Shown: one piece after another, positions 9,016-27,014 of the stretch | How the letters are laid out: every line of letters begins with the position of its first letter | How positions within the stretch are numbered: position 1 is the stretch's first letter | Source: a virus | DNA length: 64,000 bases | Direction: 5' to 3' (one strand) | IMG/VR virus record: IMGVR_UViG_3300042453_004886 | Coordinates: 96,001 to 160,000 of that record | Notes under the pieces: model-generated | The model's input: only the letters and a program-made list of their open reading frames with translations | Told to the model about the DNA's origin: nothing | Database searches by the model: none | Position numbers and translations under genes: made by a program

Positions 9016-9072
9016 CTTTTCAGAGGGGGTCAGCTTTGCTGACCCCCTTTAAAAAGAGCGACTGGTGCGTAC
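9016..9072 (+). promoter_or_regulatory. Hairpin-repeat element copy 1 (putative phage RNAP promoter)
   Basis: AGGGGGTCAGC-TTT-GCTGACCCCCT hairpin + TTAAAAAGAGCGACTGGTGCGTAC, then an ACCCTTTT box; upstream of 9143. Confidence 0.7.
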
Positions 9073-9142
9073 TTAACGTAATAGTCAAACCCTTTTACAG
9101 AGCCACACCTGTGCGTGTGGCCACACTGCAGAGGAGAAAACC

Positions 9143-9640: not shown

Positions 9641-9740
9641 GCCTCACGACCGGCAACAGATCCCCATGGGCCTTGGTAACCCATGGGGACGCGTAGAGGT
9701 TTAGTAGTCTCATCCTATTAGAAAAACTACTTTTCTTTTC

Positions 9741-9797
9741 CTTTTTAGAGGGGGTCAGCTTTGCTGACCCCCTTTAAAAAGAGCGACTGGTGCTTAC
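9741..9797 (+). promoter_or_regulatory. Hairpin-repeat element copy 2
   Basis: Same hairpin as copy 1 + TTTAAAAAGAGCGACTGGTGCTTAC. Confidence 0.7.
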
Positions 9798-9855
9798 TGG
9801 AAGTAACAGTCTAACCCTTTTGCGGCCATTTTAATCACGAAAGGAGGTGATAAGT

Positions 9856-10011
9856 ATGCGGATGAGCATGGAAGAGAAGTACGTTCGTAGGCGCCAGAAC
9901 CTGGCGCTGTTCGTTCTTCTCGTCCTGTTCCTCGTCGCTGGCGCGATGGAGAACCCCATGGATCGGTTTTCCTTGGGGTCCTCCACGCCCAGCAGCGTGG
10001 AGCAGGACTAA
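9856..10011 (+). CDS. 51-aa small membrane protein (not in ORF track)
   Basis: AAGGAGGTGA SD; MRMSMEEKYVRRRQNLALFVLLVLFLVAGAMENP..., with one hydrophobic helix. Confidence 0.65.
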   Translation: MRMSMEEKYVRRRQNLALFVLLVLFLVAGAMENPMDRFSLGSSTPSSVEQD

Positions 10012-10020
10012 TTGACTTCC

Positions 10021-10052
10021 TACTCGGCGCTAGCGCCGCAATGCGCTGAGTA
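10021..10052 (+). repeat. Branched hairpin element copy A
   Basis: TACTCGGCGCTAGCGCCGCAATGCGCTGAGTA; near-identical at 12820-12851 and 17333-17364. Confidence 0.8.
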
Positions 10053-10056
10053 GGCT

Positions 10057-10117
10057 CTTTTTGAGAGGGTAGTAGCTTCGGCTGCTGCCCTCTTTAAAAA
10101 GAGGGATCGGTGCTTAC
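10057..10117 (+). promoter_or_regulatory. Hairpin-repeat element copy 3
   Basis: GAGAGGGTAGTAGC-TTCG-GCTGCTGCCCTCT + TTAAAAAGAGGGATCGGTGCTTAC. Confidence 0.7.
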
Positions 10118-10215
10118 CCCTTTCTAAGGTCTTACCAGGCCTTGCTGTCGCACATTCGTCAGAAATCCCTTTCCCCCCTTTCAGGGGGGATTTTGCCATG
10201 AAAGGAGAAACTACC

Positions 10216-11649
10216 ATGGCAAGCTCAATTCGCGACGCGTTCCTCCCCCTCATTCCGGAGCTGAAGCTCCGGCAGGAGGCGCGGAGGGAAGCCCTCCGCG
10301 CGGACCGCCGGCAGGCCCGGGCAGAGGCCCGAGAGGCCGGCAAGGCCAAGGAGGCGCTCCGGGCGGCTAAGCGGTCCGAGCGCCGCGCCGCCCGCCAGGT
10401 GGCCGCCCATGAGCGCCGCGAGGCCCTCAAGGCGGCCTTTGCAAAGGCCGCCGAGGGCCGCCCCAAGTGGGTCCAGGTCGCCTCCCGGGTGCTACTCATT
10501 CACCCGGACGAGGTCGCTAGACGGCCTCGAAAGGCCGTCCTGGGAGCGCTTCCCACCTGGGCGCTCGTGGACCTGTACTGCCCAGACCCCTTCTGGGAAG
10601 GGGTTATCTGGGAAAACCTCTTCCACGAGGGGGAGGAGCTTATTTCCCGAGAGTTCCTGGAGAAGATCCTCCGGGGCACTTCTTGGAAAAAGCTCCAAGA
10701 GGCTTTTTCCAGATGGTGCCAGCTCGAAAACAGGCCCCCGGAGTGGGAGCCCTACGCGGCGTGGAAGTTCTTTATCTCCGGTGTTTACACGGGGGGCAAG
10801 AAGTTCTTCCCGCTAGCGGGAAGGGTCAGCCACATCCAGGGCATCCTGGAGCACGGCCCAGCGCCGGAAACCCTGTCGGAGGAGGACCTGGATGCCTACG
10901 TCCGGCATCCTGGGGAGTTCAGGCTGAGTGAGCTCCTGGAGAGCGCCGAGGATCGGAAGAACCTCGCGGTTCTCCAAGAGTACCTGGAGCGCCAGCGGGA
11001 GACGTATCTCCCGGAGGAGTTCCGGGAGATCACTGCCAATCAGATCCTCAGCAGGTGGAAGACGCACAAAGACGTGCGCTTCCGCCTGGAAGGGCAGGAG
11101 TGGAGCTCTCCCGACGGGAAGATGGCGGCCCGGTTCTTGCCCAGGACCGACATCAGGGGGCTGCTGGCCGGTGACATCACCGACTGCTGCCAGCACCCTA
11201 TCGGGGCAGGGTCCGAGGCTGCCTGGGACGCGGTCAGGCAGCCCAGCACGGGCAACCTGGCCTTCTTCCGGAAGGGCCGGATTGTGGCATTTACCTGGGT
11301 GTGGGAAGCCCAGGACGGGAGCATGGTGCTTGACTCGATCGAGTACCTGAGCTCCCGCTACATGCCAGAGGTGGCTCAGGCACTTGCTGCTTTTGCAAAG
11401 CAGCTGAGGTGTGAAGGAGTCTCCACCTTTTGGGTTGGGGGCTACTCTGAAGCAGAGCTGGCCTCCCAAGTCCGGGTCCTGGCGGGATTGCTAGGCAGTC
11501 CTCGGTGGGTAAAGGCTTCCCAAGAGGGGGCCTCCCTGAATGGGGAAACTCTCCAGGGCCCCAACCTGGTCCCTTCCGGGGAATTGCCAAAGCCCGTCTT
11601 TTGGATGGGCTACTCGGACCTGCACTACAACATAGTCAGGTTCGATTGA
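10216..11649 (+). CDS. PcfJ-like domain protein (GNAT-like fold)
   Basis: C-terminal GDITDCCQHPIG...AFTWVW...MVLDSIE pattern resembles phage PcfJ-like proteins. The N-terminus is an Ala/Arg/Glu coiled region. Start chosen at the ATG after the AAGGAG SD (ORF track start 10198). Confidence 0.5.
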   Translation: MASSIRDAFLPLIPELKLRQEARREALRADRRQARAEAREAGKAKEALRAAKRSERRAARQVAAHERREALKAAFAKAAEGRPKWVQVASRVLLIHPDEVARRPRKAVLGALPTWALVDLYCPDPFWEGVIWENLFHEGEELISREFLEKILRGTSWKKLQEAFSRWCQLENRPPEWEPYAAWKFFISGVYTGGKKFFPLAGRVSHIQGILEHGPAPETLSEEDLDAYVRHPGEFRLSELLESAEDRKNLAVLQEYLERQRETYLPEEFREITANQILSRWKTHKDVRFRLEGQEWSSPDGKMAARFLPRTDIRGLLAGDITDCCQHPIGAGSEAAWDAVRQPSTGNLAFFRKGRIVAFTWVWEAQDGSMVLDSIEYLSSRYMPEVAQALAAFAKQLRCEGVSTFWVGGYSEAELASQVRVLAGLLGSPRWVKASQEGASLNGETLQGPNLVPSGELPKPVFWMGYSDLHYNIVRFD

Positions 11650-11692
11650 TGGGCTGGAGTTTGGTAGTACCTCCATCAATAAAAACTACCAC

Positions 11693-11758
11693 CTTTTTTA
11701 GAGGGGCACACAGCTTAGGCTGTGTTGCCCCTCTTTAAAAAGAGGAACTGGTGCGTAC
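11693..11758 (+). promoter_or_regulatory. Hairpin-repeat element copy 4
   Basis: AGAGGGGCACACAGC-TTAG-GCTGTGTTGCCCCTCT + TTAAAAAGAGGAACTGGTGCGTAC. Confidence 0.7.
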
Positions 11759-11801
11759 TGGACGTATTGGTTTACCCCTTAGCTCTTGAAAGGAGCTAAA
11801 G

Positions 11802-12227
11802 GTGATCACCGTTTGCAACAAGGAAAACTACCTTATTATTGAGGACGAGGTGCTCGACCTCGTCCGAGGCCAGTACCCCGCAGGAGGGCTGGCCCAAGTC
11901 GTCGGTGCGGAGAGCTCGCACCGGGTCGTCACTCTCCGGGACTGCGGAGACCTAGTGGGCATTTGCCTGCTTGACGTCGAGGAGGCCACGGTCGACGACC
12001 TCGTCGTCAAACCCAGGTACAGAAAGTACCTGGGCGAGATGCTCGCCTCGGTCCGAGAGATCGCCGGAGAAGGGGCTTGGACGGCGTACTGCCGGGCTAA
12101 GACGTCTGCTGTCACCGTTCGGGCTATGGCCCGCAGGGGGCAGCTGAGGCTTCTCCATCTCGGAGAGCCGGAGTACGACGACTACTTTGCCGAAGAGATG
12201 GTGGAGGTAGAGTTTCAGCTACTCTAG
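11802..12227 (+). CDS. GNAT-fold acetyltransferase-like protein
   Basis: LVGICLLDVEEATVDDLVVKPRYRKY resembles GNAT motif A; AAGGAG SD, GTG start. Confidence 0.45.
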   Translation: MITVCNKENYLIIEDEVLDLVRGQYPAGGLAQVVGAESSHRVVTLRDCGDLVGICLLDVEEATVDDLVVKPRYRKYLGEMLASVREIAGEGAWTAYCRAKTSAVTVRAMARRGQLRLLHLGEPEYDDYFAEEMVEVEFQLL

Positions 12228-12254
12228 CCTCCTTCCTGAGTGACTTCCTGAAAC

Positions 12255-12320
12255 CTTTTTTAGAGGGGCACACGGCTTAGGCTGTGTTGCCCCTCTTTAA
12301 AAAGAGGGAATGGTGCGTGC
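12255..12320 (+). promoter_or_regulatory. Hairpin-repeat element copy 5
   Basis: Hairpin as in copy 4 + TTAAAAAGAGGGAATGGTGCGTGC. Confidence 0.7.
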
Positions 12321-12364
12321 ATTGGGCAGCACTTAACCCCCTTTCATGTTCAGGAAGGATCCAC

Positions 12365-12550
12365 ATGAACATGAATGCCACCCGGAGCGATGTGTTCCGG
12401 GCTGTCGTGCAGGAGAACAAAATCCTGCGCGAGCGTCTTGAGGAATGTCAGAGGTTGATCAATCTCTTTTCGGACCTCGAGACGCGCCTTGCTGAAGAAA
12501 GGGCAAGGCAAATTGAGTTTGAACGGGAGCTCTTCTGGAGCTGCCGTTAA
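12365..12550 (+). CDS. Small coiled-coil hypothetical protein
   Basis: GGAAGG SD before ATG 12365, in frame with ORF 12284-12550. Confidence 0.6.
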   Translation: MNMNATRSDVFRAVVQENKILRERLEECQRLINLFSDLETRLAEERARQIEFERELFWSCR

Positions 12551-12557
12551 AACTCAC

Positions 12558-12612
12558 CTTTTTGAGAGGGGGCAGGGATGCCCCCTCTTTAAAAAGAGGG
12601 ACCGGTGCGTAC
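12558..12612 (+). promoter_or_regulatory. Hairpin-repeat element copy 6
   Basis: GAGGGGGCA-GGGA-TGCCCCCTC + TTTAAAAAGAGGGACCGGTGCGTAC. Confidence 0.7.
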
Positions 12613-12672
12613 TGGATGCATTGGTTTACCCCTTTGTTACGCGGCCATCTCTAAAAGAAAGGAGGTGATTAC

Positions 12673-12801
12673 ATGATGGAGTCGGATTTCCTCCGGGCCG
12701 AAGCGGCCCTCGAGGAGGCGATCCTCCGGGCTGAAGAAGCTGCCGAAACGGCGGCAGCCCGGGAGGAGTGGGCCGCTGCTTTCGCGGCGGTCTGGGGTTA
12801 G
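12673..12801 (+). CDS. 42-aa acidic helical peptide, copy 1 (not in ORF track)
   Basis: AAGGAGGTGA SD; MMESDFLRAEAALEEAILRAEEAAETAAAREEWAAAFAAVWG; paralog at 17191. Confidence 0.75.
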   Translation: MMESDFLRAEAALEEAILRAEEAAETAAAREEWAAAFAAVWG

Positions 12802-12819
12802 TTTTTTCGTTTCTTTTCC

Positions 12820-12851
12820 TACTCGGCGCTAGCGCCGCAATGCGATGAGTA
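12820..12851 (+). repeat. Branched hairpin element copy B
   Basis: TACTCGGCGCTAGCGCCGCAATGCGATGAGTA. Confidence 0.8.
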
Positions 12852-12855
12852 GGCT

Positions 12856-12916
12856 CTTTTTGAGAGGGTAGTAGCTTTAGCTGCTGCCCTCTTTAAAAAG
12901 AGGGACCGGTGCGTAC
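12856..12916 (+). promoter_or_regulatory. Hairpin-repeat element copy 7
   Basis: Same type as copy 3 + GAGGGACCGGTGCGTAC. Confidence 0.7.
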
Positions 12917-13011
12917 TAGCACTAAAGGTTTCCTCCCAGAAACAAAGGAAGATGAGCTCACTCGGTGAGATCTTCCTTGCTGTCAGAGACAGCAATGTTG
13001 CGTACATAAAA

Positions 13012-13053
13012 GCGGGGTCTAACCCCTCTTTAAAAAGAGGAATTGGTGCGTAC
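13012..13053 (+). promoter_or_regulatory. Hairpin-repeat element copy 8 (short hairpin)
   Basis: GGGG-TCTAA-CCCCTCTTTAAAAAGAGGAATTGGTGCGTAC, directly upstream of RNAP-like gene 1. Confidence 0.65.
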
Positions 13054-13171
13054 ACGCATTAAATGTCTTCCTTTTTTCCCCGGATTTTTTATCGCGTAAT
13101 CCGGTGATCGCCATATACTTGGCGCCCTTTGCTCGGGGAGAGAGCGTTTTCAGCGCATGAGGAGGAAACCA

Positions 13172-16100
13172 ATGCGTATGAACAAATTGGTGAATCAAAA
13201 GCACCAAGCGCTGGCGAAGCTGGCGGTGGAGAGATTCAAGAAAGCACAGGAAGCTCCTGAGGAGAAACCTGAGCCGACTATGGATCTCATCGCTCGGGCG
13301 AACGAGAAGGCTGTTGAATACAGCCGGCTTCGTAAGCTTGCCCTTGAAGTTCTCTCTCATGAGAGCTCTGAAGAGGGCTGTGTCGAATTCGGGATCAAAC
13401 CTGAAGACGACATGGGCGTAATTCGCCGCAAAGTGGTGAACCGTTTCAAAGCGGGTAACCACTCGGTGGTCCGGGGCGAGCTCAAGACGCTGTTCCCTCG
13501 TCACGAGGAGGACATCTACGAGCCCGCCGAGGTCACCAAGCAGGATGTTGCCGACATGGCACTCCTGTTCGGCGCGGAGTGGCCCACCGACGAAGCCTTC
13601 GGCTTGTTCGGTGTTACCTTTGACTGGGACAATGCCGGAAGGCTTGTTGTCAACGGTAAGAAGGCTCTGAGGAACGTCATCGCCGTTTTCGGTGGTGGTA
13701 TGCCTCACGAGCTCTTTCAATATCAGACTGCAGCTCTGGTATTGTTGGCCGCCCAAGGTGCTGCAGCCCAGGAGCGTGAGAGGTTTGCATCAAACGCAAG
13801 CCCTTACCAGGTCCAGAAAGCGCTGACGAAAGCCTTCCAGAAGGTGATCAACAGCGGGCCTGTGAACAAGGGTAGCGAACAACCGGCCTACGGGTTTGTT
13901 GATGCAACCTGTGCGCTCCGACTCAAGGAGATCGTTCGACCGATCGAAGTCCTGCTGGTAGAAGATAGCATCGTCTACCTGGAGCAGATTGATCCCATTC
14001 TTGGCAACAAGATGGTGAAAGAACTGCACCCGGACTACGGTGTGGATATCGAATCGGGTAACTACCGGCCTGCCGGTAAGATGCTCGACGAGAACCACAT
14101 CGCGGTAAGGTCGAGCGATGGGGCCAAAAGTGCCAAGCGCACCCGTATGGCCTCAGGTGAGCAACAGGAACCGGTGAATCCTGTGCTCTCTCGTGTTTCC
14201 TACAGAGGAACTCGAGCAACCGGCTCCCTGATCACCGCGTTCCTTGCGCCGTGTGCAGACCCGTTCTTGGCGGGTGGTCCTGGCGGTAGCCTTGATTTGT
14301 CGGGTGAAACCGGCGTCAAGACCAGCTACTGGGACGACGCGCTGCACAGCGGCACGAGCTTCGATATCCGTTCCGCCGAGGATAGAGAAGCCTTCCTGAA
14401 CACCCTCCCCAGCGATGGGGATGTTCTCGGCGAGACCCTTAGCGTGTTTGGCGCCCCACCTGTCAAGGTGCCTTCAGACGCTAGGGGCGTGGTCACTAAG
14501 GTGACCGCGGCCCCCGATGGAGCCTACCGCAATATGCGGTGGCAGGTGCATAGTCGTTTCAAGGAAACTTCTGTGTTCACCAAGCTCCGCGGATCAATCA
14601 AGACGATGGTCTCTGCAGGCCTAGTTGCGAAGATCCGACTCGGGGAAGGGTCCATCACCCACTTCGACATCCGCAATAGCGGACTTGCCCTGTCGGGGTG
14701 GGAAGGAGAGGATTTGTTCCTCTCAGGAGACGCATTCAAGGGAACCGGGAAAGGCAACAGCCAATTCCGGGTGGAAGTCGCCGTTGAAACGATATGGCAT
14801 TTCCTTCCTTTGGAAGCGGACAGTCTCCTATCCTCTCTGCTCCCGGAGGCGCTCTACAAGGGCGGAATCGTGGAGTATGACGAGGCGTTCGATCTCGACG
14901 GGGCTTACGAGCCTCTGATGAGGGAATTCGAGCGTCGTTTTGCCAAAGTCGCTGACCTTGGTAAGACAGTCGAACTGCCTGAAGTCTGGGACAAGTGGTT
15001 GCTTGAGCATGCCACGAAGGTCGGGCTGAAGGTGGAAGACCTCGTCTGGAGCCCCTTCCAAAAGGAGGGAGTCACTGGCAAGCAGGTGGCTTTCAACATT
15101 GGTAAGGGTATCACGGGGCTCCCAGAGTACCGCGTATTTGTACTTTACGACGATGGCTGCAAGGCTGTTGTGAGGACCACGACTGCGTTTAAAACCGCGA
15201 TGTTGGTCCGTGTAGAGTACGGAAGCGTCAGGAAGGCAGCCAGCAAGGCCCAACTTATGCTCGAAGTCGCTTACGGCGCTAAGGCAATGGGTCTTGACGA
15301 GCTCGCTGAGTTCCTCGAGTACGAGGGGCGTTCCAAAGCGCGTGCGGTGCTCAAGCTCATCCGTTCGGTTGGTCCCAAGGCAGCAATTGCTGAGGGAAGT
15401 CGAGTAATCGATGCCGCCGAAGCAACGGATGAGGACCTGCTTGAGATCGAAACCCTGCTCGAGAGTGATCTCGAAGCATGGCCGGAAGATCTTGTTATCG
15501 AATGCAAGTTCGAGGACAAGAACGGAAAGCTGTGGAGAGTTGTCTTGGCTCACCACTTGGTTTCGGTCATCTCAAAGGAGAACCCCCAGAGAAAGGCAAT
15601 CTCTGGCATTCTCGATGCGATCCTTAACAAAGATCGTACAAGGTTCGAGAATAACATCCGGGTCCTTGAAGGTGGGCTGTCTAACATGGTTTCTTTGGCC
15701 AATAAGAAACTGTGGAAGAAGGTTCACGCAGGTCCAAATGCTGCACACGGTAAGCGGGTCATCGTACTCGCCTCTCACGTGGGCTGCCATGAGGAACTGC
15801 TCGTCAATCCGTTCGGCAAAAATGCTAGACATCTAGCCAAGCAGAACGGTTGCGAGATCAAGGAACTGGATGGGCGGTGGGTAGTCGTCCAGCGAGCTCC
15901 ACAAAGCCTGCCGATTTTGCTGAGAATCGTGTTAACCACGGCTATCGGTAAGAACGTGTTCGGCATGACGGACCTTGCTGCCTCGATCGACAACGGCGAT
16001 CACGATGGAGACACTATCCTCGTGACGGTCATCCCTGACCAAATCGCCGAAGTGACCCTGCAGAAGTACAACGCTCGCAGAAAGTCGCTGTCGATTCACG

Positions 16101-16975
16101 AGGGTACGCACAAGGCGGATCCGTATCACTGGATCGAGCAAAACACGTTTGTGGATGGAAAACACAACGTCTGGGCTCGTCCTTCCGTGGTTACGGTTGA
16201 AAACTTGCGCAAGTACGACGAGGCGGGCATCCGGGCATATACACTTGAAATGCCTTCGGATGCCAACAGGGCACACCTCGCCCTTGCCATCGCTTCGATG
16301 CAGCTTCCCACAGGCTGGGGGGAGTTCAGCATCGAGGAGGCCAACGGCCTGATGTTCAGCGTCTACGAGCCGGAGCTTGGTGGTTTTAACCCCAAGTTCG
16401 CTGCTGCTCATGCCGCAATTGCCAATCTTGGCAATGAACGTCTCAAGGAGTTCCTCCAAGCTACGGATAAGCTCGACCTTCGGGAAGACTTCGCCAAGGC
16501 TTGGCTTCGGTCCGCAGATGCCAAAAGCTGGTGTCAGAAGACCGTGAGTTACGCAAAGTTTAACAGCAATGGAAAGCTTTCCGTATGGAACCTCACCCAG
16601 GCCACGGTCCCTCAGGAGCAGAGGCTCGCAGCCGTACCCAGGTTAGTTGCTTTTGCAATGAAACTCCTGTCAGTTGGGAACGTCAACAACCAGTTGATGC
16701 TCAATCTGGACAAGGTCGTTGTCGAGAGCATGGTCAAGGAGACCAAGGGCGAAAACCGGCGTTACTACCCGGTTCTAGTCAAGGGTAAGCCAGAAGTGGT
16801 CGAGCTGAAAAGCGTGATCAAGAAACTGGCAGCAAAGGGAGTCCCGGGCGCTCAGCGCTTGGAGATCTGGATGGACCACATCCTCCCTGAGTTCTCCAAG
16901 TACCACCCCAAGGAGTACCATGCCGCAATGGCCTTCAACGGGGACTACGATTGTTCCGATTCGGAGGAAGAATAG
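13172..16975 (+). CDS. Single-chain two-barrel RNA-polymerase-like protein, paralog 1
   Basis: VVVQRAP...[14 protein letters not shown] (nt 15998-16012) matches beta-prime NRAP...[29 protein letters not shown] resembles [28 protein letters not shown] supplies a DPBB-B-type lysine pair. GAGGAGG SD before ATG 13172. Confidence 0.72.
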   Translation: [1267 protein letters not shown]

Positions 16976-17070
16976 CAAACTGATCGGGAACTTGGCGGCT
17001 TTGTCTTAAGAACGCACAGAAAGTGCAAAAGCAAAGCTGCTAAGTTACCTGATCAAGACAACTAAATAAC

Positions 17071-17132
17071 CTTTTTAACAGAGGGGGCTGGTTCATTCCA
17101 GTACCCCTCTTTAAAAAGAGGGACCGGTGCGT
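17071..17132 (+). promoter_or_regulatory. Hairpin-repeat element copy 9
   Basis: GAGGGG(G)CTGG-TTCATT-CCAG(TA)CCCCTC + TTTAAAAAGAGGGACCGGTGCGT. Confidence 0.7.
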
Positions 17133-17190
17133 CGGTGCGTCCAAGGTGCAACCCTTTTGCGGCCACTTAATCACGAAAGGAGGTGATTAC

Positions 17191-17310
17191 ATGATGGAAG
17201 ACTTCCTCGCGGAGGCCATCCTCCGGGCTGAAGAAGCTGCCGAAACGGCAGCAGCCCGGGAGGAGTGGGCAGCTGCTTTTGAAGCCCTGGACCAGTGGGT
17301 CTGGGGCTAG
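17191..17310 (+). CDS. 39-aa acidic helical peptide, copy 2 (not in ORF track)
   Basis: AAGGAGGTGA SD; MMEDFLAEAILRAEEAAETAAAREEWAAAFEALDQWVWG. Confidence 0.75.
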   Translation: MMEDFLAEAILRAEEAAETAAAREEWAAAFEALDQWVWG

Positions 17311-17332
17311 TTTCTTGTTTGTTTTCCTTTCC

Positions 17333-17364
17333 TGCTCGGCGCTAGCGCCGCAATGCGTTGAGTA
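17333..17364 (+). repeat. Branched hairpin element copy C
   Basis: TGCTCGGCGCTAGCGCCGCAATGCGTTGAGTA. Confidence 0.8.
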
Positions 17365-17368
17365 GGCT

Positions 17369-17427
17369 CTTTTTGAGAGGGTAGTAGCTTCGGCTGCTGC
17401 CCTCTTTAAAAAGAGGGACCGGTGCGT
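17369..17427 (+). promoter_or_regulatory. Hairpin-repeat element copy 10
   Basis: Same type as copies 3 and 7, directly upstream of RNAP-like gene 2. Confidence 0.7.
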
Positions 17428-17548
17428 CGGTGCGTCCAAGGTGCAACCCTTTTTGCAGGTTTTTCTCGTGGAACCTGATGATCGCCATACAGCTGGCGCC
17501 TTTTGGTCGGGGAGTGACCGCATGCTAGTCGAAAGAAAAGGTAGGACT

Positions 17549-20500
17549 ATGATGTCCGAATACCTGAAGCTTCGCGAATCGGTAGCAAGTGCTCTGTTGG
17601 GTGACACCAACGAGCACGGGCTGCCGCCCGTCGAGGCCGGCTTCGAAGCCTTCAGCAGACAAACTGCTAAGGCGCTGAAATCCTTGGGAATGGCATTCCA
17701 GGGTGCAACCCTTGTGGAAGAAGAGTTTAACAGACTCTTCGGAAACTTGGGCGATCACGGGTGGGAGCTCACCCCCGTGGACCAGATGGACCTTGTTGTC
17801 CTCTCGGTTATGCTGGGAGCGCAATTCCAGGGATGGGAGACAATTTCCTTTGATAAGGAGATTCTCTCGTTCGATCAGGCTGGCAACCTGGTCGTCGGTG
17901 GCCGCAAGGCTATCGGCCCCGTGCTGCTCGTGCAGAGCGTCAGGGATCTTGGGAATCCCGTCGTCGTAAATACGGCGGTGCTTTCCAAGTACCAGGCCGC
18001 GGCCTACGTCATGCTTCTCGGAGCACGTCGTGGCCTGAGTTCCGCCTTGAAGGCGTGCGACCGGTTCCTCATCGATCCCGAACAGGGGTTCATCGATGCG
18101 GATCGGAAAAGACTCCTTGACGGGAGTCTCCGCGTCGTCGAGGTAGAGCTCCTTGGCAATCTGCTGGAGCCCGTCGAAAAGACCGACCGTCTGCTCGTGA
18201 ACTCGGTGGTTCGGGAACTGCTTCCCAACTACCGCGTTCGCGCCTCAAAGGACAGCTACGCCCCATTCGGAAAGCTGGCCCCGGTACCTGGTTTCCTCGA
18301 CGTTCCAACCGTCGACGAGGCCAAAGGCGTGAAGCGGGCGGATGCCGCAGATGTCACTCAGTGCAGACCGGTTAACCCCGAGCTCTGCGCTCTGTCGTAT
18401 CAAGGCACGCGGGGCACAGGCGTTCTCTTGGACGTCTTGCTCGCCCCGTGCGGTCTCGCGACACTCACCGGGTTCGGAGACGGAACCGCTGCAGTGCTCT
18501 CCCGAGAATTCGGGGACAAGGCAGCCTTCCATGATCCGTTCGTGGTGAGGGCCACCAGTTTCGCGGTCAAGAGCCAGGAGGACTGCGAAAAGTTCATGGC
18601 GACTATTCCCAAGGTAGGGGAAGAACTCGTCGGCAGCAAGTTGAGCGTGCACGGTGCGCCAACGAAACTGTTGCCCCTTGGCAAGAAGCTCGTCACCGGG
18701 GTCTCCCAAGCCACGGAAGACCCCACGTATGGCAACATACGCTGGGAAGTGAGGGGCGAGGCAATCGACCGTAGCGGAGATGGTAAGCTCCGCGGGCTTC
18801 TCAAAGCCATGACGGTGTTCCCAGCCGTCAAGATCCACCACGGGCATGGCTTCCCGTGGAAGGAACTTACCAGGAACGAACTCGTCATCGCCCTTCCGGG
18901 CAATGTTAGGACGAAGTTTGACCTCCTAGCCGGGATGGCGTGCTGGAAAGGCAGCGGAAAAGGCTCGGGTAAAAACCGGGTCGAGACCGCCGTCCAGACC
19001 TTCAAGCGGCACCTTACCCATGATGAGTTCGAAACTCACATGGGGGAGGTACTCCCCGCTGAGGGCTTCGACGCCGATGGCACCCCACGCTACGACGAGA
19101 CCGTAGACGTGGGTGGAGGATACTCACAGCTGGTCCAGTCTTTCGAGGAGCACTATGCTGTTCCTCTTAGGATTGGCCGTCTCATCGCCAAGGACCTGTG
19201 GTCCAGGCTTCTGGATGCTTACCTCAGACAACTGGGTAAGCGGAAAGCAGACCTGGAGTGGGAGCCCACCCCGATTGGTGGCCAGGCAGCCAGCTTGGAA
19301 ATCATGAAGGGAATCACGGGCAAACCGGAGGTGCTTACGTTCGTCGTCCTTGACGATGGGCGGACAGCGCTTGTGCAGCAGACAACTGCATTCACCACAG
19401 CCATGGTGCTGAAGGTGGAGCACACGTCTGTTGCCCGGAGCGTGTCGATCGCGCACATGATGCTGGACGCTGCCATAGCGTTCAAGGCACTTGGGCACGA
19501 GAAGACCGCTCGTTACCTTGAAGAACAGTCCAGGACCCCTGCAAAGGGTGTCGAGCGGCTGTTTGACTTGGTAAACGGGCACATCCCGGTCAGCCACAGG
19601 ACCGTCGGTCTCCACCCCGGCAAAAGCCGGCTGCTCCCCGAGGGAACCGCCATGCTCAAGGCCATTATCGAGAGCGATCTCGAGACCTGGCCTGCTGATC
19701 TCTGCCTCAGTGCAGGGCTCAACGAGCAGGAGTTCTGCGTCGACAGGACCGTTCTGGCAACCATGCACGCGGAATCGCCGCAGCGGGGTGCCGTGAAGGG
19801 GCTGATCGAAGCAGCTCTTGGCGGGGATCTCACCCGGTTCCAGAACAATTTCCGGACGCTTCGCGCCGCTTTGCACAAGATGCTCAGCGCCGCGAACAAG
19901 GGTTTCTTCAAGAAGCTCATGTCTGGACCGCGAGGCTCCCATGCCAAGCGTGTCCCGATCACCTCGTCCGGTGCTGCTCATGATGAACTTCAGATCCACC
20001 CAAAAGGGCAGGTCTGGAGGAATTTGGAAACCATCTTGGGAGAGAAGATGGTGGACGGGCAGTATGTCCTGCTTCTCCGGGCGCCGATGAAGACCCCGAG
20101 CTTGCTCAGGGTCAAGTCGTCGTTCTCCGTAGGGGTGAACAAGTTCGCCGTCTCCGAGAAAACCGCGTCGTCGTCACGAGGTGATTTCGATGGAGAAGGC
20201 GTCGTAGTCGTCCCGCTGTCCCAAGAGGCCGTCGAGGAGCTTCTGAGCGCTAACTACAGCGCTTGGGAGCTCAGCTTGAAAGCTCACTCGATCAAGACGG
20301 GAGGCGAATTCCACTGGGAAGACGCCAACCTGCTGATCGATGGAAAGCACAACGTTTGGGGTAAAGCCAAGCGTGTGTCGATCCAGAGCTCGATCGCGCT
20401 CGATGAGGGAACCATCCGGGCCTACCGCATGGAAATGCCCGGCGACGCCAACAAGGCCACCATGGCCCTCATGTTGGCTGCAATGGGCAAGTACCAGCTG

Positions 20501-21127
20501 AACAACGTCCTTGGGCTTCTCTTCGAAGTCTGGGAGGCGGAGCTTGGCGGGTACGATCCGAAGTTTGCTGATGCCCACAAGGCAATGCAGATCGAGGATC
20601 CCATCGAGCGCGAGGAGGAGTTCCTCAAGGCATGCGCCAAATTGAACTTCACGGAGGAGTTCGGGCGTGCTTGGCTTTCCATCTCCGCGGCGAAAACCTC
20701 AACGATGAAAGCCCTTCAGAAAGGCTATCTCATTGGGGAGCACATGACGTTCCGGCACGTCATCAGCCAGAGCACTCCTGCCGACGAACGATCGATGTCC
20801 GCATGGATGGCGATCGCGTTCGCGATGAAGCTGCTTTCGAGCGGTGAAATCAACAACGAACTCATGCTCAACCTCGATATTGCCCGAGTTGAGAATTGGG
20901 TGGTTGTCGGTAAGGACCGGAAAGGCAAAGACATCCAGCGCCCCACCGGAGAAAGCTACGACCTTGCACAAGGTATCAGCTTCCTCTGGAAGCAGGGGCA
21001 CCCTGCGGCTACTCGGCTGCAGCACTGGATGATGGCGGTTCTTCCGAGGCTGCGCGAGTTGAGCAAGGAGAAATCCTACAGGGCTTTCAGCCCGGACATG
21101 CTCAACAGCTCATCTGAGGAAGACTAG
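17549..21127 (+). CDS. Single-chain two-barrel RNA-polymerase-like protein, paralog 2 (DFDGE variant)
   Basis: YVLLLRAP...SSRGDFDGEGVVVVP (nt 20183-20197); GKLRGLLK; colinear similarity to 13172-16975 along its length. Start chosen at the ATG after AAAGGTAGG (ORF track start 17441). Confidence 0.7.
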   Translation: MMSEYLKLRESVASALLGDTNEHGLPPVEAGFEAFSRQTAKALKSLGMAFQGATLVEEEFNRLFGNLGDHGWELTPVDQMDLVVLSVMLGAQFQGWETISFDKEILSFDQAGNLVVGGRKAIGPVLLVQSVRDLGNPVVVNTAVLSKYQAAAYVMLLGARRGLSSALKACDRFLIDPEQGFIDADRKRLLDGSLRVVEVELLGNLLEPVEKTDRLLVNSVVRELLPNYRVRASKDSYAPFGKLAPVPGFLDVPTVDEAKGVKRADAADVTQCRPVNPELCALSYQGTRGTGVLLDVLLAPCGLATLTGFGDGTAAVLSREFGDKAAFHDPFVVRATSFAVKSQEDCEKFMATIPKVGEELVGSKLSVHGAPTKLLPLGKKLVTGVSQATEDPTYGNIRWEVRGEAIDRSGDGKLRGLLKAMTVFPAVKIHHGHGFPWKELTRNELVIALPGNVRTKFDLLAGMACWKGSGKGSGKNRVETAVQTFKRHLTHDEFETHMGEVLPAEGFDADGTPRYDETVDVGGGYSQLVQSFEEHYAVPLRIGRLIAKDLWSRLLDAYLRQLGKRKADLEWEPTPIGGQAASLEIMKGITGKPEVLTFVVLDDGRTALVQQTTAFTTAMVLKVEHTSVARSVSIAHMMLDAAIAFKALGHEKTARYLEEQSRTPAKGVERLFDLVNGHIPVSHRTVGLHPGKSRLLPEGTAMLKAIIESDLETWPADLCLSAGLNEQEFCVDRTVLATMHAESPQRGAVKGLIEAALGGDLTRFQNNFRTLRAALHKMLSAANKGFFKKLMSGPRGSHAKRVPITSSGAAHDELQIHPKGQVWRNLETILGEKMVDGQYVLLLRAPMKTPSLLRVKSSFSVGVNKFAVSEKTASSSRGDFDGEGVVVVPLSQEAVEELLSANYSAWELSLKAHSIKTGGEFHWEDANLLIDGKHNVWGKAKRVSIQSSIALDEGTIRAYRMEMPGDANKATMALMLAAMGKYQLNNVLGLLFEVWEAELGGYDPKFADAHKAMQIEDPIEREEEFLKACAKLNFTEEFGRAWLSISAAKTSTMKALQKGYLIGEHMTFRHVISQSTPADERSMSAWMAIAFAMKLLSSGEINNELMLNLDIARVENWVVVGKDRKGKDIQRPTGESYDLAQGISFLWKQGHPAATRLQHWMMAVLPRLRELSKEKSYRAFSPDMLNSSSEED

Positions 21128-21217
21128 CTGTGTCACAAATAAACTCGAGCTATCCCACGAACGCACACGAAGTGCAAGGGATGCTCGAGTTTTGCTGTGA
21201 TTCGATCAACTAAATAA

Positions 21218-21281
21218 CTTTTTAACAGGGGGGCTTGGTTCATTCCAATGCCCCTCTTTAAAAAGGGTAACTGGTGCGTAC
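21218..21281 (+). promoter_or_regulatory. Hairpin-repeat element copy 11
   Basis: Hairpin like copy 9 + TTTAAAAAGGGTAACTGGTGCGTAC, then an ACCCCT box. Confidence 0.65.
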
Positions 21282-21484
21282 AAAAACTCACAATCTACCC
21301 CTGAGGCGGCGTCCCTATGAACAACGTGCTCTATGAGCACGGATTTGGTTTGGCTGGGGCCTTCGGCCCCAGGCAAACCGTTCGGACACGCCTGCGGCGT
21401 GGGGGATCACGCCTGCGGCGTGAGGGACTGCGTCCCTAGGACTATCCAGGCCTTGCGGCCTGGATAAGTTGGGGCGAGGTAAGT

Positions 21485-21554
21485 CGTGCTCAAACCGGAG
21501 GGGAGGGCTGGCGCCCTCCCCTCCGGTTTGGCACAGCGGCGCTTCGCGCCGCGG
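21485..21554. repeat. Long GC stem-loop repeat, copy 1
   Basis: GTGCTCAAACCGGAGGGGAGGGC-TG-GCGCCCTCCCCTCCGGTTTGGCAC + GCGGCGC-TTC-GCGCCGC; repeated at 22182. Confidence 0.8.
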
Positions 21555-21636
21555 TCTCCGTTGTTGGGGTTTGTGGGTTTCAGTGGGGTTAATTGACGGG
21601 GAATACCCCCAGTCACACTCAACGCAAGGAGGAACC

Positions 21637-22107
21637 ATGCGACACTTGATCGATCCCACTAGTCTCCGGGAAGTCACCAGCTCGGCCGGCAACACGGCCC
21701 TGCTGGGGAAGTTGATCACGGGCGAGGACTTCGCTATCCAGTCGAGTCAGAAGTTCGATGGCGCAGCTCAGATCCACGAGCTGCACACCCGGCTGACGGA
21801 GAGCGGGAACCCTGTCTGGCTCTGGGGACTTGCCCCCTCGGAGCGGACCGGCAGGCTGGAGTGCTGGGTCAACCGGGCCCTGCTGCTCGGATCTCTGTCG
21901 GACGAGCAGACTCTCCGGAAGCTCCAAGCGGTCTACCCGCAGGCGAGCTTCTTCTCCGGATGGGGCATCGAGTCCGAGGAGGACGCGCTGACGCGCCTCC
22001 TCCTCGGAGCTCAGGCTACCCAGGCTCCCGCTCCCCAGGCCGCTGCTCCCGTCACAAAGGCCCGCCGCAAGGCTGAGGCCAAGGCCGCGGAGGAGCTGCC
22101 CTTCTAG
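21637..22107 (+). CDS. Hypothetical protein with SSB-like acidic C-tail (EELPF)
   Basis: AAGGAGG SD; Ala/Pro linker then EELPF. Confidence 0.6.
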   Translation: MRHLIDPTSLREVTSSAGNTALLGKLITGEDFAIQSSQKFDGAAQIHELHTRLTESGNPVWLWGLAPSERTGRLECWVNRALLLGSLSDEQTLRKLQAVYPQASFFSGWGIESEEDALTRLLLGAQATQAPAPQAAAPVTKARRKAEAKAAEELPF

Positions 22108-22181
22108 CGAAGGGCAGCTCGGGGACCCCAGAACGCTTCGCGTTCTGGGGTCCCAACCCCAGCGGTTCACTTTGTCTGTTT

Positions 22182-22251
22182 CGTGCTCAAGTCGGAGGGG
22201 AGGGCTGGCGCCCTCCCCTCCGACTTGGCACAGCGGCGCTTCGCGCCGCGG
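22182..22251. repeat. Long GC stem-loop repeat, copy 2
   Basis: Same as 21485 copy, with compensatory changes (AAACCGG/CCGGTTT to AAGTCGG/CCGACTT). Confidence 0.8.
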
Positions 22252-22778
22252 CTTCCACGGCGTCAATTCCCCTCTCCCGGGGAATTGGTGGAGGGGTAGC
22301 TTCGCTACCCCCGCCTGGCGGCGGCCAAGCGTGGGCTTGGGTCGGTTCAGTCCGGCCTTCCCGCGTCTCGGCTGCCACTGAAGCCGGACGCCCCGGCCCG
22401 GCCCCCCTTCGGGGGGCCGGGCCGGGGGCGTTTTGTTGCGTACACTATACAAGGGTGTGCAACAAAGCGGAAAATTTGAGGGGAAAGACCTCTGGTAACA
22501 CTCACGTCACGAAAGCCAACACCATGGCAAGACGTAAGTTACCATTTGGCAACCCCTCAAACCACCTCTACCGGGTGGGGACATCCGGTAGAAACCCGTG
22601 AAAACGGGAGTTGTCCGTACCAGACAAGTTCTTGCAGGAGCTTGTCTGGGTAGCGGGTGTGGCTGCAACCACACACGGTACTACGGACCTTTGAAGCCGA
22701 GGCTCTGAGACTGATCAGCTCAGGGCCTTGGGCTTCATTGCTTTACACAAAATCAATTTTACACATAAGGAGAAACCT

Positions 22779-23105
22779 GTGTTCATTAACCTCACGCCTC
22801 ACACCATCACGGTGCTTGACCAGGACTCCGTCCTGGTCAAGGCGATCCCGCCCTCCGGGGCGGTGGCTCGCCTGGAGAAGCGGGACGGGGATGCCATCCT
22901 CGTGGATGGGATCCCCGTCAAACGTCCCCATTTCGGGGAGGTCATGAACCTCCCCGAGCCCCAGGATGGGATCTTTTTCATTGTGTCCGCCATGGTGCGG
23001 ACCAGTCCGGGGCTGCTCTCCCGAGGAGACTTGGTCTCCCCTGCGGACTTCGTCCGGGACAGCCAGGGAAACATTGTTGGCTGTCGGGCGTTCGACGCCA
23101 ACTAG
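22779..23105 (+). CDS. Conserved viral hypothetical protein (NLTPH family)
   Basis: FINLTPHTI...LPEPQDGIFFIVS...GDLVSP...RD..G.IVGC pattern recognised from many phage proteins; AAGGAG SD before GTG. Confidence 0.6.
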   Translation: MFINLTPHTITVLDQDSVLVKAIPPSGAVARLEKRDGDAILVDGIPVKRPHFGEVMNLPEPQDGIFFIVSAMVRTSPGLLSRGDLVSPADFVRDSQGNIVGCRAFDAN

Positions 23106-23159
23106 GTCAGTAAGTCAGGGCCGGGCTATAAGCCCGGCCCTCGCTCGAGAGGAGAACCC

Positions 23160-23294
23160 ATGAAAGAAGAAGAATACGCGGCCCTCCGGGACGCGGAGTT
23201 CATCTGCGCCTCGTGTGGAACAAACCACACGGGGCGTGGGGGCTTGCTCATGAAAGACGGTTGGGGGTGTGAGGACCCCTACTGTCAGTACTGA
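23160..23294 (+). CDS. 44-aa Cys-rich (Zn-ribbon-like) peptide (not in ORF track)
   Basis: GAGGAG SD; MKEEEYAALRDAEFICASCGT...GCEDPYCQY. Confidence 0.55.
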   Translation: MKEEEYAALRDAEFICASCGTNHTGRGGLLMKDGWGCEDPYCQY

Positions 23295-23575
23295 GCGAAC
23301 CAGGGCCGGGCTATAAGCCCGGCCCTCGCAACACTGCACGTGCTCGAACGGACCTTCGGTGCGTACATAACGTAGCGATCGCCACCAGCGGAGCTATATT
23401 GCGTACACCAGCTAAAGGTGTCCCTAGGACTAACCGGAGCAACGTGCAAAAAAATTGATGGGGGTAACCCCACCAAGGCCTGATTTCGCAAGAAATTAGG
23501 TGGGAACTGTCTTGGGGCTTTTCCCTCTGACATTCCCAAATGTCGTAGCCGATTCTATTCGTAAAGGAGGCCAGC

Positions 23576-24031
23576 ATGCTGGTCAAGATCCACGCTAACA
23601 TCCGAGTTTACGTCCCGGGGGAAAACGAGCTGACCATCAACGGTCAGGTCAAGAAGCCGTTTCTGGGGCTCCGGGGCCCTGGTGACATCAACGTCACGAT
23701 CTACGGCGGTACCGCCGGGGTCGAGGGTCTCGAGAAGCTCGTGAAAGAGCTGAAGAGCCACGCGCCGAAGACCGGGTACGGTTACGTGCAGGTCACGGGA
23801 GTGCGCAGGTCGGACTCGGGATTCATCGGTTTTGCGGGTGACGTCACCTGCACCGGGAGTCCTACCAACAAGATGCTGGAGTGGGCGGAAGGCCTCGATC
23901 TCGTTGCCCTGCAGAGGGACGTCGAGGAAGAGCTGAACGGGCGTTCTTCCCGTGCTCGCACCTGGGCACAGAAGAACACCAACGCCCAGCCCCGGAAGGA
24001 CGATGACAACGGAACGGCAATGCCCTTCTAG
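23576..24031 (+). CDS. Putative ssDNA-binding protein (beta-rich, C-tail DDDNGTAMPF)
   Basis: AAGGAGG SD; alternating beta-strand pattern; acidic tail ending MPF, like SSB-Ct. Confidence 0.5.
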   Translation: MLVKIHANIRVYVPGENELTINGQVKKPFLGLRGPGDINVTIYGGTAGVEGLEKLVKELKSHAPKTGYGYVQVTGVRRSDSGFIGFAGDVTCTGSPTNKMLEWAEGLDLVALQRDVEEELNGRSSRARTWAQKNTNAQPRKDDDNGTAMPF

Positions 24032-24089
24032 TCATCGTTAAATTTCAGGGGAGGACTTCGTCCTCCCCTGAAACCCCCCGGAGGTCACC

Positions 24090-24515
24090 TTGGATTTTCC
24101 CGTCTACGAGTTGGACGTTAGCCGTCCAAAATACAGAAGACGAAAGAAAACCTTAAAAAGTGTCCTCACCGCTCTGGTTGGAATATCCGTGATGTACGCC
24201 ATGGCAAGATATTTGCCTGGCGCACGTTACGGATGGGTCGAGGCGGATTACCACCAGTTCCAGGGAAACTACATGGGAACCATGTTCAAAGGAAACCGGG
24301 AATACGTGGTGATCTACAAGAACTCGGAAGTTCGCTCGTTTGAAATCAACCCAGGCATCAGCCTGAGCTTACCTCATCTGGGAGCAATGGTTGAAGTTCA
24401 CTATAACAACGAGCAATTTCCGAAAATCATGCAGGGAAGAGACCTGAAGGCAATTCATATTCCGGACCCTGCACCGGAAAACGAAGGATTGCCTACGCGT
24501 TACGGCGTATTCTAG
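24090..24515 (+). CDS. Hypothetical single-pass membrane protein
   Basis: Basic stretch followed by hydrophobic VLTALVGISVMYAM; GGAGG SD. Confidence 0.6.
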   Translation: MDFPVYELDVSRPKYRRRKKTLKSVLTALVGISVMYAMARYLPGARYGWVEADYHQFQGNYMGTMFKGNREYVVIYKNSEVRSFEINPGISLSLPHLGAMVEVHYNNEQFPKIMQGRDLKAIHIPDPAPENEGLPTRYGVF

Positions 24516-24524
24516 GAGGTTCAG

Positions 24525-25769
24525 GTGCCGATAGATATCATACCGGCACTTGGAGCCGGATCTCTTCTGGGAATGCTTGCGCTTTTCCCGGGGTTTCACT
24601 TTGCCATGGTCCTGCTTGTTGCGGGACCATGGATCCTCAACCACTTCACGCTAGCCAGTGGAATTTTGTGCATGGCAAGCGCGGTATGCGTGAGTAAATG
24701 CATGCATACCTTGGCGGTGGTGTATCACCCGGTATCGGGTAACAACATCGCCTCGGCAGATCCTGCTCAGCGCTTGGCTGCAGCGGGACAAGGCCGTTAT
24801 GCCACAGCGCTCATGGGAGACGCTGTCTGGGGCTCTGCCACAACCTTGGCGATTTTGCTAGGGGCTGTGGTGCTGTTCCAGACCTGGCTCCAGACAGACC
24901 TGATCAAGCAGGCGATCAAGCTAATTTCCAGCTTGAGCGGATTGGCAATCTTGGTCTGGATAATAGCTCTATTAGCCAGCTCCAAGAATCTGCTGGCAAC
25001 GATTTTCGTGTTCGGGAGTAGTGCAGCCCTGGGCGTCATTGCCCTGATGCACCCCGCAGTAGAGGGATCTACTCACACGATGACTCCGTTGCTGACAGGA
25101 ATGTTCGCGTTTCCAGTTCTTCTGAACACTCTCTTCGAGAAGCACTCCTCGTACCAGAGGATCGAAGTAGAGAAGCAAGACGAACTGGAGACAGATCCAG
25201 GCTTGAAACTCATCGGATTTATCACGGGTATTCTATCCGTGGGACTTCCGGGTTTGGGAACCTCAAGCTTGGTGTCCGTAAGTCAAGGCCTGACAGAATC
25301 AGATGCAGAATATCTCACCATGGCTTCCTTTGCGGAAACTACAGGTGAAATGATGGCGCTGATTCTGGGCATCCTGAGCATTGCCTCCCGTAGCTCAGAT
25401 GCAGCAATTATTCAGCAGGCCTTGCTGAAGCATACGGGAGAGTTCGCCATTCACCCGACTTTCATGTACCTGCTGCTGGGAACGATGCTCGTGTCCTGCT
25501 GGGTGGGTCTGAAACTGGTTAACGTGGTGAGCTTTCCGTACAGAGTCATGCTTAACCTCATCCCGGTGAAGCTTCAGGCTCTGATTGTGGCTTCGGCCAT
25601 GATCGGGCTGGTGTGGCATCACACGTCGATGTGGGGCATGGGGATCGTCTTGGCAGGCACCCTGATTCACCTCGGAGCTAAACAGCTCTATGTGTCGAAT
25701 CAAGTCCTGTTTGCCTGCATGGTGATCCCGATGCTGATGAACATGGCTCAATTCAACCCGTTCCGGTAA
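24525..25769 (+). CDS. Polytopic membrane protein, TctA (tripartite tricarboxylate transporter permease)-like
   Basis: About 10 hydrophobic segments; LFPGFHF and GLPGLG resemble the repeated PG-motifs of TctA-family permeases. Confidence 0.5.
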   Translation: MPIDIIPALGAGSLLGMLALFPGFHFAMVLLVAGPWILNHFTLASGILCMASAVCVSKCMHTLAVVYHPVSGNNIASADPAQRLAAAGQGRYATALMGDAVWGSATTLAILLGAVVLFQTWLQTDLIKQAIKLISSLSGLAILVWIIALLASSKNLLATIFVFGSSAALGVIALMHPAVEGSTHTMTPLLTGMFAFPVLLNTLFEKHSSYQRIEVEKQDELETDPGLKLIGFITGILSVGLPGLGTSSLVSVSQGLTESDAEYLTMASFAETTGEMMALILGILSIASRSSDAAIIQQALLKHTGEFAIHPTFMYLLLGTMLVSCWVGLKLVNVVSFPYRVMLNLIPVKLQALIVASAMIGLVWHHTSMWGMGIVLAGTLIHLGAKQLYVSNQVLFACMVIPMLMNMAQFNPFR

Positions 25770-25771
25770 AT

Positions 25772-26988: not shown

Positions 26989-27014
26989 GAACAATCTCTG
27001 TAAGGAGGAAACCC

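Follow-up and report, generated by a model that had tools for sequence, protein, structure and literature searches.

Tandem paralogous genes for putative single-chain two-barrel RNA polymerases in the genome of a tailed phage

Two long open reading frames, ORF-A and ORF-B, lie in tandem in a 64,000-nucleotide (nt) stretch of phage DNA, referred to here as the window, which covers positions 96001–160000 of the 194,626-bp IMG/VR record IMGVR_UViG_3300042453_004886. Their products are paralogous single-chain two-barrel polymerases by predicted fold and conserved residues. Most likely they are the non-virion DNA-dependent RNA polymerases (RNAPs) of a transcription cascade like that of Thermus phage P23-45, present here in duplicate. 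The record is rated 100% complete (CheckV), and the genome is that of a tailed phage, with genes for proteins of the tail and tail fibres, for thymidylate synthase, for ribonucleotide reductase and for a helicase, and with three giant ORFs of 2667–3297 amino acids (aa). Single-chain two-barrel RNAPs are minimal relatives of cellular RNA polymerase. A handful have been characterized, namely YonO, QDE-1, crAss gp66 and P23-45 gp64 and gp96. In ORF-A and ORF-B, a beta-like barrel carrying K-x-R-x3-K and a beta'-like barrel carrying R-x-P and DxDGD would together make up a single active site where the barrels meet.

The two genes are diverged copies of each other. BLASTP aligns the products colinearly from end to end with 414 identities in 1249 positions (33%, 562 bits), which bears out the initial annotation of this DNA, where they were described as diverged tandem paralogues. 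The ORF-A frame opens at 13157 or 13172 and closes at 16975; the start at 13172 has an AGGAGG Shine–Dalgarno site and agrees with the 1267-aa form held in databases. The open frame of ORF-B spans 17441–21127, with translation probably beginning at the ATG at 17549, given that the duplicated 5' leader stops at 17520. Upstream of each gene lies a small ORF with a strong Shine–Dalgarno site. These ORFs encode near-identical acidic, Ala/Glu-rich peptides of 39–42 aa, for which tblastn found no homologue in the contigs of relatives. To judge from the nucleotide sequence, peptide, leader and RNAP gene are duplicated as one unit. All the motifs quoted in the initial annotation are present: KLRGSIK/KLRGLLK, RFENNIR/RFQNNFR, HGKRV/HAKRV and RAP in both proteins, followed downstream by DGKHNVW, IRAY..EMP.DAN and ELGG..PKFA. 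Two of them need qualification. The RF.NN.R motif occurs in both ORFs, but is kept in the closest clade only and not across the family. DxDG is literally present in both, but the third carboxylate that follows it is Glu in ORF-B (DFDGE) versus Asp in ORF-A (DHDGD).

The predicted structure of ORF-A has the fold of a two-barrel RNAP. AlphaFold2 run from a two-sequence alignment gave an unusable model, with a predicted local distance difference test score (pLDDT) of 31. With 23 sequences, the ORF-A core (residues 325–1110) was modelled at pLDDT 89.2 and a predicted template modelling score of 0.86. A Foldseek search of this core against PDB returned 264 matches at E<=1e-3; among the matches listed, RNAP chains, either beta/Rpb2 or beta', fill all the top ranks. 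An independent search with VIA-align placed QDE-1 first (Z 13.5, root-mean-square deviation 4.4 over 356 residues, model positions 5–786), and the QDE-1 matches together range over Z 13.0–13.7 and 291–372 residues. RDR2 aligns over about 356 residues of the whole model at Z 9.7–12.8. P74-26 gp62 (a homologue of P23-45 gp64; PDB 8f5m) and P23-45 gp96 likewise align across the whole model, at Z 10.3 and 10.2, respectively; the P23-45 structures are PDB 8h2n and 8h2m. These four proteins alone give whole-model alignments, whereas chains of multisubunit enzymes cover one half each. Beta/Rpb2 chains align to the N-terminal half, positions 1–560 (Foldseek E 2e-7; VIA-align Z 8.3–9.2), and beta' chains to the C-terminal half, positions 410–786. 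Isolated double-psi beta-barrel domains match positions 532–645, the site of the metal triad, at Z 11–12. The single-chain two-barrel fold proposed in the initial annotation is thus borne out in the model, which contains the expected pair of double-psi beta-barrels. With QDE-1 as best match and both barrels in one chain, ORF-A is closer to the QDE-1 type than to beta plus beta'.

The residues expected of the active site are conserved. Conservation was scored over 23 aligned sequences; the full-length family members number 12. R908, P910, D943, D945, G946 and E682 of ORF-A are invariant, and K471, R473, K477 and D947 are conserved in at least 90% of the sequences. The residues picked out from the two sequences at the start (K..K, R.P and D.DGD) coincide with those that the family alignment shows to be invariant. 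K471-x-R473-x3-K477 would represent the beta-like basic residues (cf. Rpb2 K979/K987 and QDE-1 R738/K743). An R-x-P upstream of the triad (cf. Rpb1 R446/P448) is found in both ORF-A and ORF-B. About 45 residues before R-x-P stands [AG]-K-R-[VTM], with K861 invariant, which resembles switch 2 at the level of the motif. The switch-2 basic motif (Rpb1 G-K332-R-V) has been tied to DNA-dependent enzymes (PMC2919709). Eight residues are common to all two-barrel RNAPs according to the same paper, and seven of these are accounted for in the family. The eighth is the beta-barrel carboxylate (Rpb2 D837; QDE-1 D709; PMC2919709).

Relatives were found by an exhaustive hidden Markov model search, in which a profile of ORF-A and ORF-B was run against 1.84 billion representatives. 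It recovered 26 metagenomic proteins. Twelve of the proteins found are full-length family members; about a dozen others are distant, 500–2100 aa long and similar mainly in the catalytic region, and these (P0015–P0028) contain no RNAP Pfam domain and have no match in GenBank phages. Other searches yielded little. The PDB sequence search with ORF-A gave noise only, a word-indexed homologue search returned the query itself or its two closest relatives, and neither the phages nor the plasmids of GenBank gave a tblastn match. Pattern scans of IMG/VR produced no relative, and a motif scan of JGI metagenomes gave four chance matches and no relatives. ESM Atlas matches of ORF-A to LEF-9 (0.87) and Rpb1_2 (0.84) were treated as leads and not used as evidence. 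ORF-A and ORF-B thus belong to a further, previously unnamed family of a known kind of enzyme, invisible to the profile libraries. The family tree has two well-supported clades, and both ORFs fall in clade I.

A link to cultured phages comes from structure and profile comparison. The best BFVD match of the ORF-A model is an uncharacterized protein of MaMV-DC (E 2.5e-18, template modelling scores 0.54/0.51, 780 columns). This is most likely ORF65 (1677 aa), because the fragment length fits and the part of the record covered holds no other candidate of that size. Compared by hhalign, the family profile and ORF65 align over 547 columns with 98.8% probability (E 1.1e-16), bringing KLRG, the invariant Glu, R.P, GDxDGD and LGGY into register; pairwise BLAST of ORF-B with ORF65 was not significant. 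Seven genomes of Fukuivirus-type Microcystis phages, in nine records, have a conserved ORF65, and its annotation is always 'hypothetical protein'. Its counterpart in Ma-LMM01 is gp064 (AB231700, 43811–48832). That gene adjoins, directly upstream, the experimentally defined early cluster gp054–gp063, with a 42-bp tandem-repeat array in between. Unlike ORF-A and ORF-B, gp064/ORF65 is 1677 aa long, is present in single copy and is about 17% identical to them over aligned columns. A transcriptome study of Ma-LMM01 reported no phage-specific motif and attributed all expression classes to host sigma-70 (PMC5780444). The gp064 link therefore offers a cultured, bloom-relevant system in which the host-sigma-70-only view is now directly testable.

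Both RNAP genes lie in a block of high GC content, and the left half of this block carries a repeated bipartite element. Its conserved motif starts at 9048, 9773, 10093, 11734, 12296, 12588, 12892, 13029, 17110, 17405 and 21257. No copy occurs elsewhere in the 194.6-kb genome; by chance, 0.02 copies would be expected. Within the left half of the block, nearly every gene has a copy in front of it, the two RNAP genes and the two peptide ORFs among them. The element also stands beside homologous genes in L011, L012 and L017, three contigs from two other samples. The alignment of 16 copies has 19 invariant columns. The base of the hairpin is fixed and the upper stem variable; accordingly, RNAalifold applied to the 16 copies recovered the stem base only, as the variable upper stems do not align. 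Folded as single sequences, the hairpins have energies of -23 to -31 kcal/mol, with one weaker at -10.6, and z values of -2.8 to -6.7. So far as sequence and predicted folding tell, the element is conserved and is a candidate for both promoter and terminator.

Immediately to the left of the block ends the gene for a 3297-aa giant protein. Pfam PLDc_2, a phospholipase D (PLD) domain, lies at residues 216–329, and SRAGAP..LGDFDGD at about residues 2321–2386. The protein has no match in PDB, PHROGs, GenBank phages or the Atlas, and it aligns with the ORF-A/B family over 24 columns at GDFDGD. At motif level it is a candidate virion RNAP. A PLD-domain giant is also encoded by Ma-LMM01; in BFVD the ORF-A model matched it weakly (E 5e-3, probability 0.21).

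The probable order of events follows the precedent of P23-45. In that phage a tape-measure-fused virion RNAP, gp96, reads a conserved motif before the pre-early genes (PMC10770324). These genes include the non-virion RNAP gp64, which then reads a second motif (PMC10770324). By analogy, (i) the high-GC block would be transcribed from the elements, by the injected giant polymerase or else by the host enzyme. (ii) ORF-A and ORF-B would then be made after infection and would transcribe later phage genes. (iii) The two enzymes would probably use different promoter sets. The arrangement suggests that the phage transcribes much of its genome with enzymes of its own.

Several observations weigh against this identification. 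Curated libraries do not recognize the proteins: hmmscan of ORF-A and ORF-B against Pfam, PHROGs, NCBIfam and PADLOC gave no match. RNA_pol_Rpb1_2 (PF00623), RNA_pol_Rpb2_6 (PF00562) and LEF-9 (PF05094) had no match at E<=10 in the whole phage genome, the LEF-9 search being run without a positive control. Against PDB, the family profile produced beta' matches at the GDxDGD loop that stayed below threshold (E 0.07–0.4). The catalytic residues also depart from the canon. No conserved acid stands upstream of the basic pair in the family alignment, and the only invariant acid not assigned to the triad, E682, follows K477 at a distance of 205 residues. The acid precedes the basic pair in Rpb2, beta and QDE-1, so that the order is reversed in the ORF-A family. 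The context of E682, 'VE[SY]', recalls 'NFEDS', and the basic-before-acid order may reflect a beta-like barrel arranged differently from those of all two-barrel polymerases described so far. The D-D-E triad of ORF-B is unique among the 12 full-length members. The best structural matches, QDE-1 and RDR2, also copy RNA. Exact k-mer counts upstream of all genes outside the block revealed no second conserved promoter motif. Finally, a short motif is the sole basis for regarding the giant protein as a virion RNAP.

The reader of the element may be sought elsewhere than in the giant protein. ORF-A and ORF-B might themselves recognize it, in which case the block would be a self-amplifying transcription module, set going by a first round of host transcription or read-through. 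This is possible, though the less expected arrangement. Its appeal is that the element is confined to the block encoding the enzymes and accompanies the clade-I homologues in L011, L012 and L017; L018, a contig that carries a clade-II enzyme only, lacks it despite the presence there of a homologue of the C-terminus of the giant. The composition of the block is foreign to the giant gene, moreover, and an enzyme–promoter pair travelling together is plausible. Sigma-70-like sites at 8105–8173, in the AT-rich gap at the left block border, could serve a first round by the host enzyme. Co-occurrence with clade-I genes and foreign composition thus favour ORF-A and ORF-B as readers. Two points speak for the giant protein instead. 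Because the element stands in front of the very genes for the polymerases, any enzyme that they encode would meet a start-up problem, and in P23-45 the virion enzyme is the one that reads the motif-rich pre-early region. The evidence from L018, furthermore, is that of one 16.5 kb contig.

Paired RNAP genes are not peculiar to this phage. Tandem pairs were found in two others. Contigs L011 and L012 overlap end to end and place P0005 two small ORFs upstream of P0008; the former is a clade-I protein, 44% identical to ORF-A, and the latter belongs to clade II. On an NCBI contig, P0007 (plus a 311-aa piece) and P0006 lie about 2.5 kb apart. Given pairs in three phages and a tree of two clades, the pairs arose or were assembled more than once, and this repeated origin speaks for two enzymes being functionally required. 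What the second enzyme does here is less certain. ORF-B could be catalytically impaired and act as a non-catalytic partner of ORF-A, as one half of a heterodimer or as a specificity or processivity subunit, an interpretation that must be called doubtful. It would account for a D-D-E triad seen in 1 of 12 full-length members, for the longest branch in its clade (1.27 versus 0.79), and for deviations at five otherwise near-invariant columns, as against two in ORF-A. The remaining active-site residues of ORF-B are, however, all intact (K-R-K, the GKRV-like AKRV, R-A-P and two Asp), and Glu can still bind metal. In both other paired phages each copy keeps DxDGD, and the P23-45 RNAPs are monomers. 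In either event, the D-D-E triad of ORF-B offers a natural test of the strictness of the metal triad.

A further alternative is that ORF-A and ORF-B are not transcriptases at all, but primases or RNA-templated RNAPs like QDE-1, the top structural matches being QDE-1 and plant RDR2. QDE-1 is described as both DNA- and RNA-dependent (PMC9508822). For ORF-A and ORF-B, a primase or RNA-templated role is very unlikely. Assayed phage members of the clade (YonO, P23-45 gp64 and gp96, crAss gp66) are DNA-dependent transcriptases, the switch-2-like GKRV is invariant in the family, and the genes sit within an early block with promoter-like elements.

The block itself belongs to the phage. Its GC content steps sharply from 40% to 55–61% at both borders; the contigs of relatives are 56–62% GC. 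L018, a 16.5 kb contig from another sample with 58–65% GC throughout, is syntenic with the block across both borders. The common gene order runs from the C-terminus of the giant protein through a small reverse ORF, the RNAP and homologues of the 414-aa and 148-aa genes to the gene right of the block. Shared gene order across both borders places the block at its ancestral position and argues against a chimera. As a guess, the high-GC module of this 40%-GC phage was acquired by replacement or exchange from a high-GC relative. If the block were a chimera of the assembly or an unrelated mobile element, the RNAP pair would stand outside the phage's programme. This notion has the sharp GC jump at both borders in its favour and is nevertheless extremely improbable: L018 carries the same genes in the same order across each of the borders, two contigs have ORF-A on record, and neither an integrase nor flanking direct repeats were found.

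Table 1. Features of the window, with positions counted from its first nucleotide.
Feature	Position	Strand	Basis or remark
ORF-A, 1267 aa, single-chain two-barrel RNAP-like protein, canonical metal triad	13172..16975	+	sequence and model
ORF-A K471-L-R473-G-S-I-K477, beta-like barrel basic pair	14582..14602	+	at least 90% conserved in 23 sequences
ORF-A E682 ('VE' after long strand), candidate fourth carboxylate	15215..15217	+	invariant, 23/23
ORF-A K861-R862 in HGKRV	15752..15757	+	K family-invariant; resembles Rpb1/beta' switch 2 GKRV
ORF-A R908-A-P910, beta'-like barrel R-x-P	15893..15901	+	invariant, 23/23
ORF-A D943-H-D945-G-D947, metal-binding DxDGD	15998..16012	+	sequence conservation
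ORF-B, 1192 aa, paralogue of ORF-A, Glu as third metal carboxylate	17549..21127	+	sequence
ORF-B KLRGLLK, basic pair	18785..18805	+	sequence
ORF-B R-A-P	20078..20086	+	sequence
ORF-B D-F-D-G-E (GAT TTC GAT GGA GAA), third Asp replaced by Glu	20183..20197	+	GAA at 20195-20197
42-aa acidic peptide ORF upstream of ORF-A	12673..12801	+	strong Shine–Dalgarno site; flanked by two elements
39-aa paralogue of the 42-aa acidic peptide, upstream of ORF-B	17191..17310	+	
Bipartite element, all 11 copies	9016..21281	+	GC-rich hairpin, variable upper stem, then conserved CCCTCTTTAAAAAGAGGGACYGGTGCGTAC
Element copy nearest upstream of ORF-A	13008..13053	+	
Element copy nearest upstream of ORF-B	17374..17430	+	
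High-GC block with both RNAP genes	8290..28300	.	55-61% GC vs ~40% elsewhere in genome
3' 2585 codons of the 3297-aa ORF (genome 93866-103759)	1..7759	+	PLDc_2; SRAGAP..LGDFDGD; candidate virion RNAP

Other features were noted in and around the block. A 94-aa ORF at 7761–8045, on the minus strand, is kept in L018 at 50% identity. The AT-rich gap at the left border extends over 8050–8290 and holds repeated ATTCTAG words in addition to the sigma-70-like sites. The first genes of the block form a tandem duplication of about 725 bp at 8368–9821. They encode paralogous proteins of about 165 aa (8412–8915 and 9143–9640) that are 65% identical, with 70% GC and no family match. At 21484–22256 there is a direct repeat with a spacing of 697 nt, 92% identical over 76 nt, with a perfect hairpin of 18 bp inside it. 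At 21.3–22.5 kb the coding strand is ambiguous. The right border, at 28352–28672, is marked by five to six tandem copies of a unit of about 33 nt with the core GTATCTCCACTAAATAAAGG, found nowhere else in the genome. The array may serve as an origin or as an array of promoters; in Ma-LMM01 the corresponding position, between gp064 and the early cluster, is taken by an array of 42 bp x 6.7. Intergenic DNA immediately to the right of the block, between 28452 and 31531, has five copies of TACACTAG-NN-CTAGTGTA, a palindrome altered at one or two positions in some of them; these look like candidate operator sites. Of the transfer RNA (tRNA) genes, those for tRNA-Asn (37523–37607, 85 nt) and tRNA-Ile(TAT) (40248–40338, 91 nt) are unusually long, and that for tRNA-Lys at 32858 is of normal length.

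The preferred reading, in which ORF-A and ORF-B are non-virion transcriptases, makes the system attractive for experiment. The family has been missed by every curated library, and its members here are about twice the size of gp64. Enzyme and candidate promoter and terminator element occur together and are testable jointly. Compact sigma-free polymerases with a defined promoter would be of practical interest for in vitro transcription. More speculatively, the cascade might consist wholly of single-chain two-barrel enzymes and be largely independent of host RNAP: an injected giant PLD-domain RNAP would read the hairpin promoters, and the two non-virion enzymes would divide the middle and late genes between them or heterodimerize, ORF-B being regulatory, perhaps on a rearranged barrel and perhaps in the Microcystis phages also. 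As a whole this wider scheme is rather unlikely.

Among known systems, P23-45 offers the closest parallel in organization. A giant virion protein with DFDGD, a single-chain RNAP gene among small early genes, and early genes that each carry a conserved motif, together with conserved terminators, are features in common. Both enzyme types of P23-45 match the ORF-A model over its whole length at Z 10.2–10.3. At sequence level the relationship is not detectable: hhalign of the 12-sequence ORF-A/B profile against P23-45 gp64 gave 0.2% probability. There are other differences. The gp64 protein has 616 aa against 1192–1267 aa for ORF-A and ORF-B; P23-45 has one non-virion RNAP, and two are encoded here. 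The element here is a long hairpin with a 25-nt box, whereas that of P23-45 is an AT-rich box. The giant protein here has a PLD domain, unlike its P23-45 counterpart.

In architecture, Neurospora QDE-1 and plant RDR2, both cellular RNA interference polymerases, are similar: single chains with both barrels, DxDGD, R.P and the basic pair. They are eukaryotic enzymes, however, that use RNA or single-stranded DNA templates, and identity is 9–15%. The barrel carboxylate of QDE-1, D709, comes before the basic pair, whereas the only invariant acid of the ORF-A family comes after it. YonO, from the Bacillus prophage SPbeta, is a single-chain two-barrel DNA-dependent phage RNAP that works without sigma (PMC5467207, PMC2919709). 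It shares with ORF-A and ORF-B the clade of phage, plasmid and RNA interference enzymes, the likeness being one of description; at about 100 kDa it differs, and ORF-A and ORF-B have no match to a YonO family in Pfam or PHROGs. From phi14:2, a crAss-like phage, comes gp66 (PDB 6VR4), a giant virion-packaged single-chain two-barrel RNAP for early genes, and thereby a model for the 3297-aa neighbour. It is not among the structural matches listed for ORF-A, and ORF-A and ORF-B are neither giant nor marked by any sign of packaging. In coliphage N4, the virion RNAP reads hairpin promoters and is succeeded by a two-subunit RNAP II encoded by two adjacent early genes. The three-stage logic, the hairpin early promoters and a second polymerase from adjacent early genes are all reminiscent of the present phage. 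The N4 enzymes are T7-like right-hand polymerases of unrelated fold, however, and RNAP II is a split enzyme rather than a pair of full-length paralogues. A duplication of the RNAP gene like that seen here has not been described for P23-45, YonO or the crAss-like phages.

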